Shown one piece after another: positions 10,763-48,853 of a DNA stretch of 64,000 bases (positions are counted from its first letter, which is position 1; each line of letters opens with the position of its first letter). A model generated the notes under the pieces. That model ran no database searches and had not been told where the DNA came from. It saw nothing but the letters and a program-made list of their open reading frames with translations. The position numbers were made by a program, and so were the translations under genes. Source of the stretch: an uncultured Verrucomicrobiae bacterium (lineage in GTDB: Bacteria; Verrucomicrobiota; Verrucomicrobiia; Limisphaerales; Palsa-1400); NCBI GenBank assembly GCA_963702845.1, contig OY969763.1, positions 4,032,001-4,096,000 of the forward strand. The letters are read 5' to 3'.

Positions 10763-13090
10763 TCACTGCATCGCGCGTGCGATGGAATTAAACCACAGGT
10801 CGTGCAACTCGATCGTATTCCATTTCAGTTCAGCACCAACTGTTTTGATGGCCAGTTCGTCGCCGCCAACAGTTCCTAATTTCATCGCGGCAATACCGAG
10901 GATTTTTGCGCGCTCCAAAACTTTCGGAACATTCAACGGGGAAACCGAAACCACAATACGTCCTTGCGATTCGCCGAATAACAGCGCGTCCAGGCGGTTT
11001 ACGTTGGCCAAACTTAAATCAATTTGTGCGCCGATGAGCCGCGGAGTTTCGCGGGCAATCTGTTGCGATATACACGATTCGGCAAGCGCGACTGCCAGCC
11101 CACCGTCACTGCAATCATGTGCGCTCTTGACGATGCCGCTTTCGATGAAGCCGCGCAACGCGTTGTGGACAGCGCGTTCCTTTTCCATATCGCAACGCGG
11201 CGGCGTGCCGGTCTTTAAATGGTGCACCGTTTGTAAATAGGCCGAACCGCCGAGACCAAGTAGCGAGTCATTACCATCAGCGATCTCGCCTAACAGAATG
11301 ACGATATCACCTTCGTCTTTGAACCATTGCGTGGTGATGTATTCCGGTTTTTCGATTTGTCCGACCACAGCGACGGTCGGCGTAGGATCGATAGGACCGT
11401 TTGGACTTTGATTATAAAGGCTGCAATTGCCGCCGGTCACCGGCGCATTGAAAAAACGGCATGCATCAGCGACACCACGCACCGATTCCTTAAGCTGCCA
11501 AAACAGTTCAGGATTATGCGGGTTGGCGAAATTTAAATTGTCGGTCGAGCCGAGCGCCACCGCGCCGGAGCAAGCCAGATTGCGAATGGCTTCGGCAACG
11601 GCGAGTTTTCCACCTTCGTAGGGATCAAGATAAACGTAAGTCGCGTTGCAATCGACTGTGAGAGCAATCAACTTTTCCTTCGTCGATTTGCTCTCGCCAT
11701 TGTTCGGCACGGAATCTTCTTTGATGCGAATGACGGCGGCGTCTGATCCAGGGCAAACGATCGAACCATCGCGAACCATGTGGTCATATTGCCGATAGAC
11801 CCAGTTTTTCGAAGCAATGGTTGGCCAGGCAACCAGTTGTTTCAGTGCAGCCACGGCGTCAGAACAATCAGGCACGTTGCTCAAAGTGAACTCGCGGACT
11901 TGTTTCAAGTATGCAGGTTCAATCGCATCGCGGTAATAGATCGGCGCTTCATCCGCAAGTTTCCTCGCTGGAATATTCGCAACGATATCGCCATTGAACT
12001 TCACCACCATGTTCCCGGTGTCAGTCACTTCGCCAATCTGTGCCCAAGGCAAATCCCATTTGTCGAAAATCCGTTTTACTTCCTCTTCGCGCCCCTTCTT
12101 AACGATGATCAGCATGCGCTCTTGCGATTCGCTGAGCATGATTTCGTACGGCGTCATGTTCGGCCCGCGTTGCGGCACTTTGTTCAACTCGATTTCGATG
12201 CCCGTGCCCGCGCGTGCTGCGGTTTCGCAGGTCGAACAAGTCAGCCCGGCTGCGCCCATATCTTGAATCCCGGCGACAGCGTCAGTCGCAAGCAATTCGA
12301 GGCAAGCTTCGCAAACCAGTTTCTCCATAAATGGATCACCGACTTGCACCGCACCGCGCTGTTGTTCGGCGGATTCTTGCGTGAGGTCTTGCGACGCAAA
12401 CGCAGCGCCTGCCAGGCCATCACGACCCGTTGCAGGGCCAACGTAGAAAACTGGATTGCCGATGCCTTCAGCCTTGCCGCGCGCGATCTGGTCGTGGCGC
12501 AGAACCCCGAGGCAAAATGCGTTCACCAGCGGATTGCCTTCGTACGACTTATCAAAATAGACCTCGCCCGCCACCGTCGGAATCCCAAAGCAATTGCCAT
12601 AGTGCGCAATTCCCGCGACAACTCCGTTGAACAAACGTCGATTGTTCACGACCTGAGAATTATCGCCAGAACCGTTCGTGGTGATTGGTCCAAACCGCAA
12701 CGAATTCAATGCGCAAATTGGCCGCGCGCCCATCGTGAAAATATCGCGGATGATTCCACCCACACCGGTTGCCGCGCCTTGAAATGGTTCAACCGCACTC
12801 GGATGATTGTGCGATTCGATTTTGAAAGCGATCGCGAGATTGTCGCCGATATCGATGATGCCCGCGTTCTCCTCACCTGCCCCAACGAGAATTTTAGGCG
12901 ACTTGGTGGGAAATGTTTTGAGGAGCGGCCGCGTATTCTTATAAGAACAGTGCTCGCTCCACATCACTGAAAAAATTCCAAGCTCGGTGTAAGTGGGATC
13001 GCGTCCGAGAATGCCTTTCAGCCTTTCAAATTCCTCGGGCGTGAGGTTGTGCTTTTTAACTAGCTCGGGTGTAATCGCGTTCTGGGTCAT
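10763..13090 (-). CDS. purL: Phosphoribosylformylglycinamidine synthase subunit PurL
   Basis: [44 protein letters not shown]. Confidence 0.98.
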
Positions 13091-36002: not shown

Positions 36003-36532
36003 GTGACCGATATGACACCGGATGAATTCTGGCTGGCTATCAACGAAGCTCGTAACCACGCTACAACGGACACCAAGATTCCTTCACTCTTAGAAGCACA
36101 ATTAGCTAAGGAATCACTTGCACACATCGTATCATTTGAGGAACAGCTTCATGCACGCTTTAATGAGGCTTATGATGCAAAACTCTGGGTTGCTGCTGGG
36201 GTGATTCTCGGAAATTGCAGTGACGACTCGTTCACAGATTTCAGGGGCTGGTTAATTGCTCAAGGTCGAGATGTGTTTCTCGCAGCTGTTCGATATCGGA
36301 CACGCTCGCGAACATCGTCCGTTTCACTGGTGACGATGGCGCTCCAAGATTATTTTATCTTTGTTACACGCCAACTCGTGTTTACCGCCAAAAGCTCGGC
36401 AATAAATTTGCTGATATTCCAATTCCTTATATCCGACCGCAGTTGCGCAATTCAGAAGTTCGCAACTGGGATGACCAGCAGATTCAGAGGTCACTTCCGA
36501 GGCTATCGGCACGATTCCGTGGTTTAAAATAA
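36003..36532 (+). CDS. DUF4240-family protein, frameshift near 36296
   Basis: EFWLAI, CSDDSFTDFRGWLIAQGRD; the shifted frame continues DTLANIV...LPRLSARF to TAA 36530-36532. Confidence 0.8.
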
Positions 36533-37791: not shown

Positions 37792-38337
37792 ATGGAACTG
37801 CCACCACACAAACCGATCTGGATGATTCGAGAGAATCTCGACGGATTCCCGCAGTTTCCCCTGACCCAACCGTTTTCAATTCGATGGTATAAAGATGGCG
37901 ACCGCGCGGTGTGGGAAGAGATCCAAAAGCGATGTGAATTCGATCCGCGGCCATTCCCGACCGACCTGTTTGACCGCGGTTACGGAGCGGATCCGGAAGC
38001 GCTTCCCCAACGGCTGTTTTTCCTGCTGGATGAACGGAAGAATCCAATCGGAACCGCCACCGCATGGCTGGACGAAACCTTTGATGGCAAACGTTACGGC
38101 CGGATTCATTGGGTTGCCATCGTCCAGGAATATCAGGGGCGCGGTTTGGCGAAGCCGCTGATGTCAATCGTTTGCTCACGATTGCGCGAACTGGGGCATC
38201 AACGCGCGTGCCTCCGAACCTCGACCGGCCGAATCCCCGCGATCAACCTATATAAGAAGTTCGGTTTCGTTCCCCTGATTCGAAACGCCGAGGAAGAAGC
38301 TGATTGGAATTTGGTTCCGGTGAAGTTTGGGCATTGA
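37792..38337 (+). CDS. GNAT family N-acetyltransferase
   Basis: HWVAIVQEYQGRGLAK (motif A), AINLYKKFGF. Confidence 0.9.
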   Translation: MELPPHKPIWMIRENLDGFPQFPLTQPFSIRWYKDGDRAVWEEIQKRCEFDPRPFPTDLFDRGYGADPEALPQRLFFLLDERKNPIGTATAWLDETFDGKRYGRIHWVAIVQEYQGRGLAKPLMSIVCSRLRELGHQRACLRTSTGRIPAINLYKKFGFVPLIRNAEEEADWNLVPVKFGH

Positions 38338-38350
38338 GTTGCGCCATGAG

Positions 38351-38443
38351 TGTCTCTGTCTCCTGTCTCCGCTGCCCCAGAGCCGGAGACAAAACAAAAT
38401 TTGTCTCCGCCTTCAGCCCTCGGAGACAAGAGACACGGAGACA
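38351..38443 (+). repeat. GGAGACA-box palindromic element, copy A (93 bp)
   Basis: 3xTGTCTC(C)-14nt-GGAGACA-10nt-TGTCTCC-13nt-3x(G/A)GAGACA. Confidence 0.95.
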
Positions 38444-38591
38444 AAAATTACGATTGCACAGCACTGTGTGCCGCAACTACGCTCCTTCGATAAACACAAC
38501 ACCAATAAAACAGTGAAAGTTTTCCTCCTTTAACGTTCACTTATGAACTTAGCCGGAAAGAAGGAGTATATAATAATATAGTTCAGGCATT

Positions 38592-39044
38592 ATGAAGTTC
38601 TTCGCCTTTACGTGCTTGTTAATAATGGTGGTTGCATCCTGTTCAAAGGAGCCACGAAATGCCCCGCCCAAAGGAACTTTTGGCATTTCGGTCGATATTT
38701 CGGACCAAACTGCGCCTGTGCCGGTGTTATTTTTGGACGACTTTTTGTTGAAGCGCTCGTTCTCCAAGGCTGGCGGACTTTTCGACAATCGTCATGTGCT
38801 GCGAGGCATGTCATACGAGACCTCGCTAGGGGCTTCAGTTATCGTCAGCGTTGGTGAAGGGCCAAAGTTAAAGGTAGTGACTATAACCGGCGCCTTACGG
38901 AGGGACTCTAAAGATGACCTGGAAACGCTTAGGCCGGACCTCGAAGGAGAATTGCGAAGTCGGTTCCCAGGCAGAAAGATAAATTCATGGACAAATTCGC
39001 CGAACCAGAGCGCTCCAGCGCCTATGAGGTTTGTCAATACGTAG
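38592..39044 (+). CDS. Hypothetical lipoprotein; integron-type cassette ORF reading into its attC
   Basis: Lipobox VASC; lower GC; C-terminal PNQSAPA is encoded by the attC left arm. Confidence 0.75.
   Translation: MKFFAFTCLLIMVVASCSKEPRNAPPKGTFGISVDISDQTAPVPVLFLDDFLLKRSFSKAGGLFDNRHVLRGMSYETSLGASVIVSVGEGPKLKVVTITGALRRDSKDDLETLRPDLEGELRSRFPGRKINSWTNSPNQSAPAPMRFVNT
38999..39020 (+). other. attC site, left arm (R'' GCCGAAC, L'' GCTCCAGC), cut by IS insertion
   Basis: Complementary to the right arm at 40678-40747. Confidence 0.85.
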
Positions 39045-39239
39045 TGTGCGTCGATGATAGTTTTTTTGGGGTTGATCGCGCGGAGCGCAGTGGAACGAAG
39101 CGCAGTCGCGCGCGGCAGGCGGTTGGACATTGGTTCAATCCGCACCTGTTGTTCTTCTCGAGTCTCCGCTTATCTGTTCCTCTTCAAAGTTCCTTTCTTA
39201 TTTCTCTCAAAGCAGGTTGCGTGAAGTTTGCTGCATCGG

Positions 39240-39430
39240 TGTCGCCGCGTTTTGTGTGTCGGGAGTTTGTCCCGCACCAGCTCCTATCCGGACAGTTGAG
39301 ATAAGACTCAACGCCCACTGTGTCTTACTTGCCTGACTGCGGCGACCGGGGAGTCCGCCCCTTCTAACGGACGGATGAACGCAAGGTTCACCAGCTGAAG
39401 CTACGGACTGGACTCGCCCGATCGCAAATT
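39240..39430 (-). ncRNA. Predicted bridge/seek RNA of the IS110 element (boundaries approximate)
   Basis: Stem-internal loop-stem with segments matching the attC target, followed by segments matching the IS circle junction. Confidence 0.7.
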
Positions 39431-39482
39431 GTTTCACGCTCTTAACTCTGGAGGTTCTACTCACGAAAAAATTAAATGTGGT

Positions 39483-40634
39483 TCACACGCCGACCCAGCC
39501 GAGGTCTGCCATGGTGCAACGGCCGGTTCGCCAGCGCCAGAGGTCCACGGCCAGTTGCCGGGCAAGGGCAATGACAGTTTTCTTCTTCATGGCCGTGCCG
39601 GCGGCAAGTTTGGTTTTCATTTTAAGTGCGGCCTTCCACCCCGGTTGCCACATCAGAAAACGCCAGACCGCTTCCACCAGGATCGCTCTGACTCGTCCGT
39701 TGCCCATGCGATCGATGCTGCCGACGCGCCGTTTGCCTCCTGAACTGTGTTCGCCCGGGCAACATCCGGTGTAGCTGCCAATCTGTTTGCGATTGTGGAA
39801 GCGCTGCCAGTCGCACACTTCGCCTTCCAGTGTCACAAGAGTGATCTCGCCAAGGCCCTTGGGCCGTGGTTGTTCTTTGACCCGCGCAATCAGTTCCTCT
39901 TCCAGTTCCTGCCGTTGTGTCTCCATGGCGACGAGGACCTCGCGGAGCTTTTCGAGAACACTGAGCAGCCACGGATCGAGGGTGGAAAGTTTTTTCCAGT
40001 TGCGCGCTCCCCACCAGCGATGGGGCAGTTTGACGTGGCTGTATTCGGCGGCTTGGCCGTGACCGCGATTGGCGAGCATGCGAATGGCTTTGTTGAGGAA
40101 CTGTCTTCGTCGCGTGCCTTCGCGCTGGCGCTGCTCTTTGTCCGAAGGAATGCGGATGGGTGCAAGTTCGTTGATGTTGCCATCAACCCAGCGAGAGAGG
40201 CGCAGGCAAAGAGCGCGCGCGTCCAGCTTGTCGGTCTTGCGCTGGCCGTTGAGGGCAATCGGCGTGATCAAAAAACTTTGCGCACCGGCGGCGACCAGTT
40301 CGCGATGGAGCACGAAGCCGAACCCACAGCTTTCCTGCACGCAGAAAACTTGCAGGCCTTCGCTGGTCCACTTCTGAACCTGGGCGATGAGTTGCTCACG
40401 GCTGAATTTGCGTGGCGCTTGGGGTGAAGCGTGATCACGTTGGGCTACCGCCATGATGAACTCCAGATGCACGTCCAGGCCAAGCTTGAGAGCCGGTTTG
40501 CCGGCAAGCAGCACAGGACGTGGCAAAGGCTGGCGCGGCGGCACGTTTGCCAGCTTGCCCGCGGCAGGCACGCTGGTTAGGGTTGGGACTGTCATGTGGG
40601 GTTTGAGTAAATATGTTTTCATTTTCAAAAACAT
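39483..40634 (-). CDS. IS110 family transposase/recombinase
   Basis: RuvC-like GLDVH, QESCG, KTDKLDA; C-terminal YTGCCPGEHSSGG and GNGRVRAILVEA, ALARQL. Confidence 0.95.
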   Translation of the reverse strand: MFLKMKTYLLKPHMTVPTLTSVPAAGKLANVPPRQPLPRPVLLAGKPALKLGLDVHLEFIMAVAQRDHASPQAPRKFSREQLIAQVQKWTSEGLQVFCVQESCGFGFVLHRELVAAGAQSFLITPIALNGQRKTDKLDARALCLRLSRWVDGNINELAPIRIPSDKEQRQREGTRRRQFLNKAIRMLANRGHGQAAEYSHVKLPHRWWGARNWKKLSTLDPWLLSVLEKLREVLVAMETQRQELEEELIARVKEQPRPKGLGEITLVTLEGEVCDWQRFHNRKQIGSYTGCCPGEHSSGGKRRVGSIDRMGNGRVRAILVEAVWRFLMWQPGWKAALKMKTKLAAGTAMKKKTVIALARQLAVDLWRWRTGRCTMADLGWVGV

Positions 40635-40677
40635 CGTGACCCCGTGTGGGGCTGCGACTCAACCCTTCATGACATCT

Positions 40678-40747
40678 GACGGCGGGACGACGCTGCGTTT
40701 ACCATCCACGAGTCAGTGGCCCGCCGCCGCTGACCTTATCGTTCGGC
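40678..40747 (+). other. attC site, right part (L' GCTGACC, R' GTTCGGC)
   Basis: GACGGCGGG...CCCGCCGCCGCTGACCTTATCGTTCGGC. Confidence 0.85.
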
Positions 40748-40772
40748 AGTGCCAGGCGGCGGATTGATCATC

Positions 40773-40865
40773 TGTCTCTTGTCTCCTGTCTCCGGTGCCC
40801 CGAGCCGGAGACAAAACAGAATTTGTCTCCGCCGTAAGCCTCCGGAGACAGGAGACACGGAGACA
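40773..40865 (+). repeat. GGAGACA-box palindromic element, copy B (93 bp)
   Basis: Same eight-box layout, spacers 13/10/13; most similar to copy A. Confidence 0.95.
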
Positions 40866-40869
40866 AACG

Positions 40870-41133
40870 TCAATTGCGCCAATTCCCTGTAAAAACTGTG
40901 TCGGCGTTATTCCGGCGAAGTTCAGCCAGGAGTTTCTCAGCGGCGGACGCTCCGCTCTGGTAAAGCTCGTGGGACGGTTGCTCATTCGGTTCGTGCGGGT
41001 TGTCGTCGCGACTGGAGCTGTGGCCTAACACGACGACGTCGTGAAAGGCGGAGAAATAGTCGTAAATGACATCCGCGCTAAATTGCTTTTCCAAAGCGCT
41101 CGCGATGCGCTCTAAATGTTCTTTGTTGTTCAT
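40870..41133 (-). CDS. Hypothetical 87-aa protein between elements B and C
   Basis: The ORF fills the interval; no motif recognised. Confidence 0.55.
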   Translation of the reverse strand: MNNKEHLERIASALEKQFSADVIYDYFSAFHDVVVLGHSSSRDDNPHEPNEQPSHELYQSGASAAEKLLAELRRNNADTVFTGNWRN

Positions 41134-41191
41134 AGTCTTGGGTGCTTTCTAAGTTCTTAGCTTCTGTTCGTAATTGGTTAATCGTTAAAGT

Positions 41192-41284
41192 TGTCTCTGT
41201 GTCTCCTGTCTCCAAGGGCGCGAAGCCGGAGACAAATTTATTTTGTCTCCACCCTTTGGGGCCGGAGACAGGAGACAAGAGACA
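41192..41284 (-). repeat. GGAGACA-box palindromic element, copy C (93 bp, inverted relative to A/B)
   Basis: Same layout, spacers 14/9/13; begins 2 bp after the helicase stop codon. Confidence 0.95.
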
Positions 41285-41286
41285 AC

Positions 41287-42833
41287 TCAACAGGCCAGGT
41301 AAACCTCGTCGGCGTCGTTGAACCGGATGTGGCCGGAGTCTTCGGCGCGTTTGATGAAACGATACGCACTGGTGCGAATACACCCGGACTCGGCCATGAT
41401 CGCCTTGGCCAAATCGGCCTTGGCTTGCGGCGTCGCACAGAGGTCGCGCACGCGTTGCGGGGCCACCATCCCTTCTACCGGTTTGGAATCGGCCAATTGG
41501 GTCTGCCATTCGTTCCAGTCAAACTCCCCATCCACTTCATAGATCATCCGTTCAGTGTCTAAACGGGCGGCAAAACGCGGGAATTCCTTCCCGTTGTTGT
41601 TCTTGCCGCAACTGACAATGAGCGAGCCGTTGTCCTCCGCCGACCCGAGCGCGATGTTGATCTGCGCGCGCGTCCAGGCGTGCAAGACCTTGGAATTGCG
41701 ACCGTAACTGGCGCGTTCGAACCCAACGGCTTTGCCCACGCCCGCTTTGCCGGTCAAGGCATGGTGCAGGACGACGATGGCACGTTGCGGATTTTCCGCG
41801 CCCGCGACGCGGCTCAAAAATTGCAACGACCGGCGCATTTCGGCGTCGTTGTTCAAGTCGCCGTTGGCAATGTTGTAGAGCGCATCGATGGCAACGATGT
41901 CCGGCGCGTGTTGCGCGATCGCTCGCTTCATGCCAGCCACGGCTGTCGTTGCTTCCAACGAGAGGAAGCTATCCTCCTCGGTTTCGAGCGTGTGAATGAG
42001 CAGTTGTTCGCAGACGGTTTTCCAGCCTTCCTCGCCCGTCCACGCGCGCAAATGTTCCAGGTCGGCGCGCAGGCGGCGATTGGAATTTTCCGCCTGCAAG
42101 ATCAACCAGCGCTTGCCCTGGGCGCGCGTCGGCAGGCCAAGGAAATCGCGGCCAATGATGCAAGCCGCCGCCAATTGCAACAACAAGCGGCTCTTGCCGA
42201 TGCCACCGGGCCCGAGAATGGTCGTGCTCTGGCCAGCGGCGATCAAGCGGTCGCCCATGTAACAATCGGTCTCATCAAAGGACATGGCGAGGATTTCATC
42301 CGGCCGGCGCATGGTCAGAGTGGAGGCTTTGTTTTCACGCGCGAACTCCAGCACACGTTCCAGATCGTCGCAACCGAATCGAGCGGTTCCAACGGATCAT
42401 GGGCACAAGCCTGGACACAGGCAGCGTGCCTGATCACCTGGCGACGTTTGCGCAACTCGTGCAGTTGTTGGACATATTGCTCAAAGGGCCCGTTCATAAA
42501 GTCGGGCAATCCCATTAGATATCCCAGGTCCCCCGCCTCCTGCAGTTTGCCTTCGTCCCTGGCGCGCTGGCTGACCGTCATCAGATCGGGCAACAACTTG
42601 TCGCGCATCACCGCTTTAATCAGCTTAAAGATGGTTTGGTGACGCAGGACGTAGAACGATTGGGCGTTGATGCCAAGTCGCTCGATGTCCTGCGCCACCT
42701 CTTTCGGCCAATAAAGGATTTTCCCCAACACCGTCGCCTCGATCTCCTCGCTGTGCGGCGGCACTTTTTCCACCGGGAGCGCAGCCCCGACGCGTCGCGC
42801 AGGGCTAACGTAATCTTCAATTATAGGTTCCAT
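41287..42833 (-). CDS. DnaB N-terminal-like domain + AAA_25 (RepA-like SF4) helicase + C-terminal wHTH; probably one ~515-aa protein with a frameshift near 42365
   Basis: PPHSEEIEATVLG (DnaB-N), Walker A GPGGIGKS, QAEN, Walker B IVAIDAL, VVLHH; basic helical C-terminus; SD AGGAAAGGA before ATG 42833. Confidence 0.8.
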
Positions 42834-42985
42834 AATGTTCCTTTCCTAAGTAGTTCAACGGACAGCGTCATGCCGCCCGCACCGGCCAACAATGGCCAGC
42901 ACGTCAATCCTGATAGTGAAGCTACGGCCGTGTCAATACTAACTTAATCAGAATGAAGCGAAATAGTCAGAATGGGAGGGGAGGC

Positions 42986-43089
42986 TGTCTCTTGCAGTAA
43001 GTTTGTCTCATATCTCAGGCAGCGCAAGGGTGAGACAACTCGCGATTTGTCTCAGCCTCCGGCACCCGGAGACAAGAGACACGGAGACA
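42986..43089 (+). repeat. GGAGACA-box palindromic element, copy D (diverged)
   Basis: TGTCTCA/TGAGACA variant boxes, spacers 13/10/13, three terminal GAGACA boxes. Confidence 0.9.
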
Positions 43090-43117
43090 ACCGGGGCCTA
43101 CAGCCTTACATCACCGT

Positions 43118-43147
43118 TTGACTGGAAGCGCCCTTTTGTGGGATAAT
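43118..43147 (+). promoter_or_regulatory. Sigma70-like promoter for the TA operon
   Basis: TTGACT-18nt-GATAAT, 6 nt before ATG 43154. Confidence 0.5.
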
Positions 43148-43153
43148 CCCACT

Positions 43154-43414
43154 ATGGCACAAGCCGTCACCATCGCGAAACATGACAAACGTAAACGATT
43201 GATCTTGCCGGACGATTTCGTGAAGGAAGCTCCGTACGGAGAATACATCATTCGCGAAGGCAAAGGACGCCTTTCCATCGTGGCCATTCCGCCACCGAAA
43301 GCTAAGCCGGCATACAAGGCCACACCGGCGTTGGAAAAAAAACTGCGGGAAGCCGCCAATTCGCCCGAGCTGGATTGTCCACCGGAGTTTTTCACTGAGC
43401 CCCTGGACGATTGA
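43154..43414 (+). CDS. Putative antitoxin (AbrB/MazE-like N-terminus)
   Basis: Small ORF, DKRKRLILP pattern, acidic tail, overlaps the toxin start. Confidence 0.6.
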   Translation: MAQAVTIAKHDKRKRLILPDDFVKEAPYGEYIIREGKGRLSIVAIPPPKAKPAYKATPALEKKLREAANSPELDCPPEFFTEPLDD

Positions 43415-43722
43415 AAGCCACGCTGACCAGGGTAGCCCGCGACGATTGGCGTAATATCCGACGCTATCTTCGTTCCAAATTCGGGCGGCAGGTTGAAATG
43501 TCTATTGCTCGCGAGGTCGCGGCCGCAGTGGAAGCTGTGACCCAAAATCCCCGGCGCGGGCATCCGATTGAATCAGCCGTCTTTCCGAATTTGCGCGGCA
43601 TCGTGGTGAAGAAATCACTGATCTGTTATCAAGCATTGCCCACACACATAAGAATCGTCCGGATCCTCGATATGCGCCAGAACACTTGGACCATCTTGAA
43701 AAAGCAACGACCGCCGGCCTAG
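43411..43722 (+). CDS. RelE/ParE family toxin
   Basis: ARDDWRNIRRYL, NPRRGHP, ICYQ, IRIVRILDMRQ. Confidence 0.85.
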   Translation: MKATLTRVARDDWRNIRRYLRSKFGRQVEMSIAREVAAAVEAVTQNPRRGHPIESAVFPNLRGIVVKKSLICYQALPTHIRIVRILDMRQNTWTILKKQRPPA

Positions 43723-43726
43723 CCCG

Positions 43727-44137
43727 ATGGCATCATTTGAAGCACTTATGGCAACTTGGCCCCACGAACCAACTCTCCTCTCAGACGCTGAACGGAGTGC
43801 CTACAGAAATCTTTTGTATGACGCTATGTTGGATATCCGCAGCCTTTGTCGGTCTCGCGGGCGCGAAAGTCGAAATCCATTGGAGATCTGGCGTCAATAT
43901 CGTCGCAGCAGACTTGCTGGCGAGCTAGCAGACTGGTTGCACAATCTGGCACAGCACTCTGCCATGGGTTTGACAGAATTGGATACGGAGTGGTTTTGGC
44001 GTGAGTATGATGGCCTTTGCCGACGACATCCGGAGTTTCGTCCGGGTGCGTGGATGGACTACAAAGAACGATATCAAAGGCATCTTTCCAGAATCGGAGT
44101 GGCTAAGCAGAACACCTCCAGCGGACAAACGGGCTGA
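43727..44137 (+). CDS. Hypothetical protein
   Basis: 136-aa ORF directly after the toxin; no family recognised. Confidence 0.6.
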   Translation: MASFEALMATWPHEPTLLSDAERSAYRNLLYDAMLDIRSLCRSRGRESRNPLEIWRQYRRSRLAGELADWLHNLAQHSAMGLTELDTEWFWREYDGLCRRHPEFRPGAWMDYKERYQRHLSRIGVAKQNTSSGQTG

Positions 44138-44148
44138 TCGAAAGAATC

Positions 44149-44190
44149 TGTCTCATCCTCCAGCACCCGGAGACAGGAGACACGGAGACA
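44149..44190 (+). repeat. GGAGACA-box element, copy E (right half only)
   Basis: TGTCTCA-13nt-GGAGACA GGAGACA C GGAGACA, nearly identical to the right arm of copy D. Confidence 0.9.
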
Positions 44191-44286: not shown

Positions 44287-44688
44287 CTATTGATCAGACG
44301 GAGGACGCTGTTGTCCACCGGGAGGATGACCGCCTCCGGCACCGCCAGGTCCGCCGGGGCCACGACCTCCTCGAAATTGGCTGCGCATGTCTTTGAGTTT
44401 TTGTTTCTGCTCGTCAGTCAAAATCTTATCGAGCTTATCCTTCGTTTCCTTTTCCAGGTCGGCAACTTGCTTCTTTTGATCGTCAGTCAGGTTCAACTGA
44501 TCTTGAACGAAAGGCGGGATGACATGAAATCCGCCGGGTTGCATTCCGCCAGGACCGCCACCTTGTTTGTGACCGGGACGTTGTCCGCCAGCCCCAGGAG
44601 CGCCGGGTGCCTGATTGTCGGGCTGAGCTGAGAGCAGGCACGTCGATGCGCCGAGTGCCAACGCGATGAGCATACTTTGTATTTTCAT
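44287..44688 (-). CDS. Exported Spy/CpxP-like helical protein
   Basis: Signal peptide, LNLTDDQK and ILTDEQK motifs, Gly/Pro-rich flanks. Confidence 0.7.
   Translation of the reverse strand: MKIQSMLIALALGASTCLLSAQPDNQAPGAPGAGGQRPGHKQGGGPGGMQPGGFHVIPPFVQDQLNLTDDQKKQVADLEKETKDKLDKILTDEQKQKLKDMRSQFRGGRGPGGPGGAGGGHPPGGQQRPPSDQ

Positions 44689-48778: not shown

Positions 48779-48853
<75 letters not shown>

Follow-up and report, generated by a model that had tools for sequence, protein, structure and literature searches.

Replication origins of Staphylococcus aureus pathogenicity islands (SaPIs) are made of 6 to 12 short iterons, penta- or hexamers, which follow rep immediately, face each other across an AT-rich centre and are read by a C-terminal winged helix, as far as the available parts of the two sources go (PMC9371898; bioRxiv 10.64898/2026.10.17.759575). 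In Bartonella, a phage-derived helicase and a run-off origin, with no integrase, lie beside plastic cargo (PMC2697382, PMC5496983, in the sections available), and in Salmonella the loss of integrase or excisionase is reported, in the available text of PMC2697382, to cause escape replication. Repetitive extragenic palindromes (REPs, and the related REPINs) flank one enzyme gene, that of the REP-associated tyrosine transposase (RAYT); they gather in clusters between genes, vary in step with the enzyme and insert without duplicating the target (PMC6006769, in its available part). The SaPI, Bartonella and REP traits just listed have observed or proposed counterparts in the island described here, which lies in a stretch of 64,000 nucleotides, hereafter the window (G000:C1:4032001-4096000; the G000 assembly is one contig of 6.03 Mb, with relatives named Limisphaerales or Verrucomicrobiota). 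In this island, five palindromic arrays of a GAGACA box stand among cargo genes and a gene for a helicase with DnaB_N, AAA_25 and winged-helix domains. The boxes are very probably the iterons of this helicase. We give a probability of about 0.5 to the reading that the island derives from a satellite, lacks an integrase and has multiplied its origin, with the origin copies serving as joints for local recombination.

The five elements were found exactly where a first reading of the bare letters, called below the sequence-only reading, had placed them. Element A (38351..38443, plus strand) has 8 GAGACA boxes in the order >>> 16 < 10 > 15 <<< and a hairpin z score of -6.8. Element B (40773..40865, plus strand), also of 8 boxes, was compared with A by sequence and fold and is 90.6% identical to it. 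Element C (41192..41284, minus strand), inverted as judged from the pattern of its tail, occupies the native origin position, 3 nt past the stop codon of the helicase gene, where relatives have their single array. Upstream of the helicase start lies element D (42986..43089, plus strand), with 7 boxes and a first loop resembling that of E1, E3 and E5 in a second cluster described below. Element E (44149..44190, plus strand) is a half copy of 4 boxes, whose loop is identical at 13 of 15 positions to the second loop of D. The full layout is >>> 15-16 < 9-10 > 15-16 <<<. On folding, long hairpins result for A, B and C (z -6.8 to -10), and D scores z -2.7. With at most one mismatch, the 14-nt tandem-box pattern GGAGACANGAGACA had 10 matches in the window against 0.04 expected, all within the five elements, in agreement with the earlier remark that no other full copy was seen in the 64 kb. 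The box itself had been taken for the heptamer GGAGACA and has to be shortened: its invariant part is the hexamer GAGACA, and several copies of the second cluster read TGAGACA.

Genome-wide, G000 contains 18 TGTCTC-N11-16-GAGACA units, grouped in 12 elements. Five are those of the window and the other seven lie at G000:C1:4001786-4005462, about 65 kb upstream of the window cluster; shuffled sequence gave 0 to 6 scattered units per 6 Mb. The genome-wide search proposed by the sequence-only reading thus shows that the element is not scattered, and the dispersal expected of a REP/REPIN-RAYT family is absent from G000, with 12 copies at 2 loci. The genes in the 65 kb between the two clusters are presumably ordinary ones, going by names assigned from their N-termini. 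A box-agnostic detector returned the window architecture in G000 for GAGACA only (7 full copies), and is insensitive because it missed the degenerate copies of the congener G001 and most copies of the genome G304.

In the second cluster, a module made of an element, a 65 bp spacer and another element is repeated three times, each time adjoining a different gene, and about 27 bp of a helicase 3′ end are left beside E6. The spacer linking the paired elements is conserved (65-72 bp, L001:9871-9935, 11108-11173 and 12497-12568), contains a TGTAAGTCGTTGAT motif and occurs nowhere else in the genome. Among the G000 elements we observed half copies, a 7-box tail expansion and cores flipped relative to their tails. 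Together with a 3-fold, element-bounded tandem unit in G169:C18, described below, these forms indicate recombination at the boxes. No target-site duplication was seen at the 5 junction pairs inspected. A reading as miniature inverted-repeat transposable elements or Tn3-derived inverted-repeat miniature elements was set aside on this ground, and also on the ground that the box varies with the helicase helix. A reading as transposon ends (TGT..ACA) was rejected because relatives use different boxes.

The helicase gene (41287..42833, minus strand; PF00772, PF13481) encodes a DnaB_N domain, an AAA_25 motor resembling RSF1010 RepA, which is also its top fold match, and a C-terminal winged helix. 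It had been described as a single open reading frame (ORF); it is in fact split by a frameshift near 42350-42400 into a DnaB_N half (42315-42833) and an AAA_25-winged-helix half (41287-42354), both on the minus strand. A contig of sequencing run X1, at 95% identity, has one extra base near 42366. Comparison with congeners showed a frameshift in just 1 of 33 orthologues, so that a true lesion appears likelier than an assembly error. Intact DnaB_N-AAA_25 fusions of 480-521 aa are known from close relatives (P0002-P0005, 72-77% identity; P0122, in the same 90% cluster). For the last 60 residues, the structure model shows a winged helix (pLDDT 83), and their Foldseek matches, weak as they are (best E 0.019, none with E < 0.001), are all winged helices; a sequence search of this domain against the PDB gave no meaningful match. 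A promoter scan found no helicase promoter on the minus strand.

The best of the sequencing runs searched hold 5-9% of the organism's words, as contigs. The apparent joints 38445-40773 and 40866-44170 were discarded, as one contig was matching several copies. In run X8, the element is prolonged by TGATACA boxes in contigs with a loose end at window position 41241, which suggests a further box variant in soil relatives.

The tie between box and helicase comes from homologues collected in genomes, viral contigs and metagenomes (L044-L079 and L096-L118 were used, the weak matches L080-L095 excluded). Removal of duplicates left 54 distinct relatives, with the box set by hand at 8 loci. As the sequence-only reading had supposed, the element goes with helicase homologues: 38 of the 54 have an array at the helicase stop codon, and of the 16 that do not, 4 run into the end of their contig. 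Among 401 genomes of the order, the GAGACA pattern matched in 4 others, and in 3 of these 4 it directly follows a homologous helicase. The proposal that homologues would have arrays of other boxes, co-varying with the winged helix, was confirmed as well, the hexamer following the recognition helix. The helix R[GPST]SAYR[YF]I pairs with GAGACA (9 loci, window included), RQV[SA]Y with GTGAC (2 loci), [QK][AP][TS]AYR or QASAYR with TGAGAA (7 loci) and AY[NEKD] with GGAA types (12 loci). Loci found later (L232, L237, L247) fit the pairing, including a RATAYR helix with TGAGAC boxes. On quick trees of 31 labelled rows, with no shuffled-label control, the box label changed 6 times along the winged helix against 15 times along the ATPase, in line with a box that follows the helix. 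A further helicase tree was a quick one with long branches, from which 9 rows had been dropped as duplicates, broken or short.

Close homologues of the window helicase occur in 14 of the 401 genomes, mostly in the integrase type of island, and wherever the flank of a GAGACA-type relative was long enough, an integrase lay 3-6 kb upstream. The integrase-bearing, satellite-like islands of Verrucomicrobiota (L044-L068, L042) share with the window the helicase family (46-55% identity), the box-helix pairing, the order of box polarities and the array at the stop codon. They differ from it by a tyrosine integrase, often at a tRNA, by a single array ending in a CCCC-TATA-GGGG-type hairpin, and by the lack of an upstream array. 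This last difference was counted at the 38 loci with at least 5 kb of upstream sequence: an upstream array was present in 0 of 25 with a tyrosine integrase, as scored by a profile built here, and in 3 of 13 without, namely the window, L069 and L073. The additional clusters of L065 and L076 all lie downstream. A looser pattern gave 8 stretches in viral contigs, among which the ones bearing arrays showed a single array of the canonical kind. In L055 and L056, two of the satellite relatives, about 150 and 550 bp of foreign DNA separate the helicase stop from the array.

The island is an insertion, because a congener has the empty site. Its left flank is a GNAT acetyltransferase gene (37792..38337, plus strand; PF00583) and its right flank a 133-aa gene (44287..44688, minus strand); in G001:C32 the orthologues of the two genes abut, about 37 bp apart and without any element. 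The island had been said to lack integrase and transposase. The first part stands, with no PF00589 tyrosine recombinase within about 250 kb and no match to the integrase profile built here in 22 kb. The second does not, as an IS110-family transposase (PF02371) is present in the cargo. No terminal repeat or tRNA was found at the island border, and among the island ORFs no Pfam or PHROG match pointed to repressor, excisionase, terminase or capsid-interference genes, three small ORFs being without family.

At the folK/Gfo site, G000 has its 7 copies with three cargo genes, and the congener G002 has one lone copy. In another congener, G001, the cargo at this site is not the same, and a TTCTCA-box element stands between the cargo genes; this element is single-copy in G001 and was found in 0 of the 401 order genomes. 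The layout recurs in a second genus, g113. Locus L069 (G304 = G419) has an intact, 545-aa solo helicase and 4 direct TTCTCA-box copies in 11 kb, which bound the helicase gene and two cargo blocks; more copies lie on other contigs. Three genomes with the box type of L069 have a single array only. At L073 (G211 = G420), the helicase is flanked by degenerate arrays amid housekeeping genes. Comparison of the L069 and L073 genes gave a dN/dS of 0.32/1.31, about 0.24, a ratio which places the gene under purifying selection. Clusters of 2 to 5 copies of a TGAGAC-box element are also found in this genus, among them five copies in 7 kb, one of them inverted, in G211:C15, four beside a helicase fragment in G211:C59, and four at a spacing of about 805 bp in G169:C18. 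This element is present in 3 of the 401 order genomes, all of genus g113. G304 and G211 have about 10 copies over several contigs, an intermediate dispersal.

The cognate position of element C, the co-variation of box and helix, the insertion, the recurrence in two genera and the rearranged copies are observed; the step by which origins spread is what we infer from them, as follows. The C-terminal winged helix would read the hexamer, and the RepA-like motor would melt the AT-rich centre of a chromosomal copy. The DnaB N-terminal domain would probably recruit the host primase, a role known from DnaB biology. In this lineage, the genes for integrase, repressor and packaging would have been shed from the helicase-origin unit. 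The origin itself would have become a short, portable palindrome, placed on both sides of the helicase and recurring in local clusters. Firing or melting without excision may then lead to local re-replication, with nascent ends and with hairpins of single-stranded DNA that stop at the boxes. As the host resolves these by template switching and by recombination from box to box, the element would be duplicated, halved or flipped, and the same events could join, amplify or swap the DNA between copies, so that cassettes and toxin-antitoxin pairs accumulate as cargo. The window island itself is probably a recent relic, since its helicase is frameshifted.

Several observations weigh against an origin-reiterating satellite derivative. 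The helicase gene of the window is broken, and no nuclease or recombinase is encoded in the island, which leaves the strand-break step unexplained. No close helicase was seen in G001 and G002, in genomes 73% and 67% complete. Dispersed copies of the array of G211's own intact solo helicase were not found, and the strict element pattern had 0 matches in metagenome contigs. The outcome of the tree comparison of box labels, which had no shuffled-label control, is also expected from joint transfer, because winged helix and array are adjacent. With two genera there are 2-3 data points, and the approximately unbiased test did not reject one common origin for both solo lineages (AU p 0.158).

Other points on the same side bear on the participation of REPs. 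The palindromes, although satellite-derived, could have been spread by a host RAYT (an HUH enzyme) or have gathered in REP-rich hot spots, the helicase being uninvolved. We hold this unlikely, and it is the rival explanation that survives best. REP-like motifs lie at 150 nt or less from 13 of 26 copies in relatives and from 2 of 29 other gaps, a contrast which is inflated because the motifs were picked from the same loci. These motifs are putative REPs, in part because they flank a PF01797 gene in L292. In G169:C18 (L292:5483-7998), three tandem RAYT (PF01797) units, 90-93% identical, are each bounded by elements; these units adjoin an MvaI/BcnI restriction-modification pair. In G211, one copy or more is a plain intergenic insertion, since the neighbouring genes follow one another in the same order in G304. 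The lack of target-site duplication at the junctions inspected would also suit this rival. G000 also has 3-4 RAYT-like genes (845531, 847485, 3188809, 3500455), but they are more than 500 kb from both clusters, and no Y1_Tnp (HUH) gene is present in the window island. A REP-like motif is nearby in 2 of the 12 G000 copies and in 0 of the 5 window copies, the nearest to the latter being more than 17 kb away for the motif tested. Copies on both sides of the helicase in three genomes, a box matching the helix and G000 copies at 2 loci only also speak against a RAYT.

Passive decay, in which ordinary satellites lost most of their genes and origins were duplicated by slippage or homologous recombination with no selected function, is somewhat less probable still. 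It would account for the upstream integrase of the GAGACA-type relatives, for the frameshift in the window and the gene tip kept in the second cluster, and for a cassette cargo typical of G000 satellite remnants. Against it, no integrase, repressor, terminase or tRNA remnant was seen at either G000 cluster. Nor does it fit the intact solo helicases with two-sided arrays, under purifying selection, the tight family of intact close relative proteins, or the G002 copy, which is 89% identical to E4/E6 when the flanking genes are at 74-79%.

Domesticated run-off replication appears improbable. On this view, the host has kept a phage-derived helicase and its origin, as Bartonella has, in order to amplify plastic DNA and possibly to have it packaged in trans, and the extra copies would be extra origins or titration sites. 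The arrangement of an integrase-less, phage-derived helicase with its origin is that of Bartonella in the available parts of PMC2697382 and PMC5496983. Both G000 clusters fall within 65 kb, and the selection estimated on L069 and L073 agrees with a host-kept gene. A vertically kept locus would not, however, be so patchy (14 of 401 genomes, mostly integrase type), occupy different sites in G304 and G211, be absent from the empty site of G001 and be broken in the window. Lastly, that the elements are sites of a recombinase encoded elsewhere, integron- or pdif-like cassette joints with the helicase as mere cargo, is very improbable: the threefold module beside three different genes would suit it, but the joints to the shared attI-like cargo differ by about 45 nt from one cluster to the other, boxes co-vary with the helicase helix, no XerC/D- or attC-type core is present and no recombinase is nearby.

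The cargo genes lie where they had been described, that is the cassette, the 87-aa ORF, the ParE pair and the 136-aa ORF. After element A comes an attI-like entry site (38448..38588, plus strand), one of 7 similar in G000 and 87% identical by blastn to the site beside E5 of the second cluster, followed by a cassette ORF of 150 aa (38592..39044, plus strand) with no Pfam family and a 50% paralogue at G000:2599032, whose last codons enter the end of an insertion sequence (IS). The attC site of this cassette is interrupted. Its left part (38999..39020, plus strand, GCCGAAC core) was placed by a visual alignment to other IS copies and to G000:4836696, where an intact member of the family lies. Its right part (40678..40747, plus strand, GTTCGGC core) belongs to a genome-wide attC family. 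Between the two lies an IS110-family element (39021..40677, minus strand; transposase 39483-40634, PF02371 E 4.6e-16, PF01548), a passenger of 1.66 kb with 6 copies in G000 at 98-100% protein identity, several of them at the same position within attC sites. IS1111-type elements that target attC have been described (PMC11187229, in its available part); the window IS resembles them by its place in attC, and as a passenger it leaves the boxes unexplained.

Between B and C, the 87-aa ORF (40870..41133, minus strand) has no Pfam, PHROG or Atlas match. Beyond D, a sigma-70-like promoter, by consensus match only (43118..43147, plus strand), precedes the toxin-antitoxin pair (43154..43722, plus strand), made of a putative antitoxin with no family, named by position only (43154-43414), and a ParE toxin (43411-43722; PF05016 E 9.7e-10). 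The 136-aa ORF (43727..44137, plus strand) is not followed by an attC before E; its paralogue at G000:4836346 is a cassette headed by attI and ended by attC. An integron in the strict sense would have intI next to attI. Here the attI-like site and attC are present as cargo, and no integron integrase (TIGR02249) over the family cut-off was found in G000, despite the 7 attI-like sites. Several of these sites, with their cassettes, lie in satellite or terminase remnants.

A few other features were noted. A tRNA gene lies at window 48779-48850, 4.6 kb right of the island and away from its border; apart from this tRNA at 48779, an Rfam scan gave just chance miRNA-like matches under gathering scores. 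Other genes near the island seem frameshifted or truncated (window 36003-36527; L001:6306-8367; G000:3992089), possibly by assembly indels. At G000:C1:5225434-5226982, another DnaB_N-AAA_25 gene, of 494 aa and with no integrase seen nearby, has a CCGGAC array at its stop, and its 60% homologue L218 (G001:C391) has a GTGGGA array instead. Two dispersed families were also seen in G000:C1. The first is intergenic, with opposed GGAGAAAC box arrays around an AT-rich centre and no adjacent helicase seen (77744, 399466, 474570, 1024851, 1774939, 2516341, 2853841, 3619444, 3853869, 3895443, 4439231). The second has TGCGAC-type arrays, some paired with TGCAAT or TGCTAA arrays (939861, 1663501, 3792231, 4107171, 4507285, 4746292, 4960013, 5502554, 5531928, 5729508, 5844673), and these are possibly other escaped origins.

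A more ambitious interpretation can be offered tentatively, and we regard it as doubtful. The locus would represent a mobile-DNA system without integrase or transposase, with a solo initiator-helicase, a re-programmable winged helix and portable palindromic origins, in which element-bounded modules are amplified, circularised and re-inserted. Its origins would spread locally and mark the joints of captured genes, as a helicase counterpart of RAYT/REP. It would exist in at least two Limisphaerales genera, in GAGACA, TGAGAA and TGAGAC versions, with a readable helix-to-box code. If origins alone do multiply and serve as gene-capture joints, some islands devoid of recombinase gain a replication-driven explanation, and some 'orphan' palindromic repeats would be escaped origins. 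Regardless of spreading, the helicase family supplies naturally occurring pairs of winged helix and iteron, where the hexamer can be predicted from a few residues, and which make initiator specificity directly testable and possibly programmable.

The sequence-only reading had proposed an undescribed helicase-associated element, to be abandoned if the boxes were scattered genome-wide with no link to the helicase, if helicase homologues never had arrays, or if the region was a decayed known satellite. The first two did not turn out so, because the boxes are helicase-linked and not scattered genome-wide. The third holds in part. The parts are of a known kind, because the origin in the unit is of the satellite type and the majority of relatives are ordinary islands that have an integrase and a single array; cargo-bounding copies around an integrase-less helicase nevertheless recur, in the multi-copy solo layout, in the second genus. 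The literature searched, which covered few subscription papers, gave no account of a helicase without integrase whose iteron arrays are reiterated or dispersed.

Compared with known systems, the locus has the array directly downstream of a winged-helix initiator-helicase, as in SaPIs and other phage-inducible chromosomal islands (PICIs), and in both cases the winged helix belongs to a self-loading helicase (PMC9371898; bioRxiv 10.64898/2026.10.17.759575, in their available parts). The motor is here of the RepA/DnaB type (DnaB_N and AAA_25) and not SF3/MCM; integrase, att sites, primase, repressor and packaging genes such as terS are lacking, and there are 12 copies of the origin, which flank the gene on either side and recur at a second locus. 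With Bartonella it shares the integrase-less, phage-derived helicase and origin, but what the available sections of PMC2697382 and PMC5496983 describe is one locus, conserved and passed on vertically, which has a Twinkle-like/Toprim protein, is tied to a gene transfer agent and shows no reiterated origin. Position is not conserved here, the G001 site being empty and the sites in g113 different. From REP/REPIN-RAYT loci, as presented in the available part of PMC6006769, it differs by a helicase without HUH domain in place of a Y1 transposase flanked by its own palindromes, by iteron arrays of about 90 bp and by their few copies, although the G169 elements bound RAYT units. The locus thus works like a PICI replication module while failing PICI membership, and is laid out like a RAYT/REP locus without the HUH enzyme.

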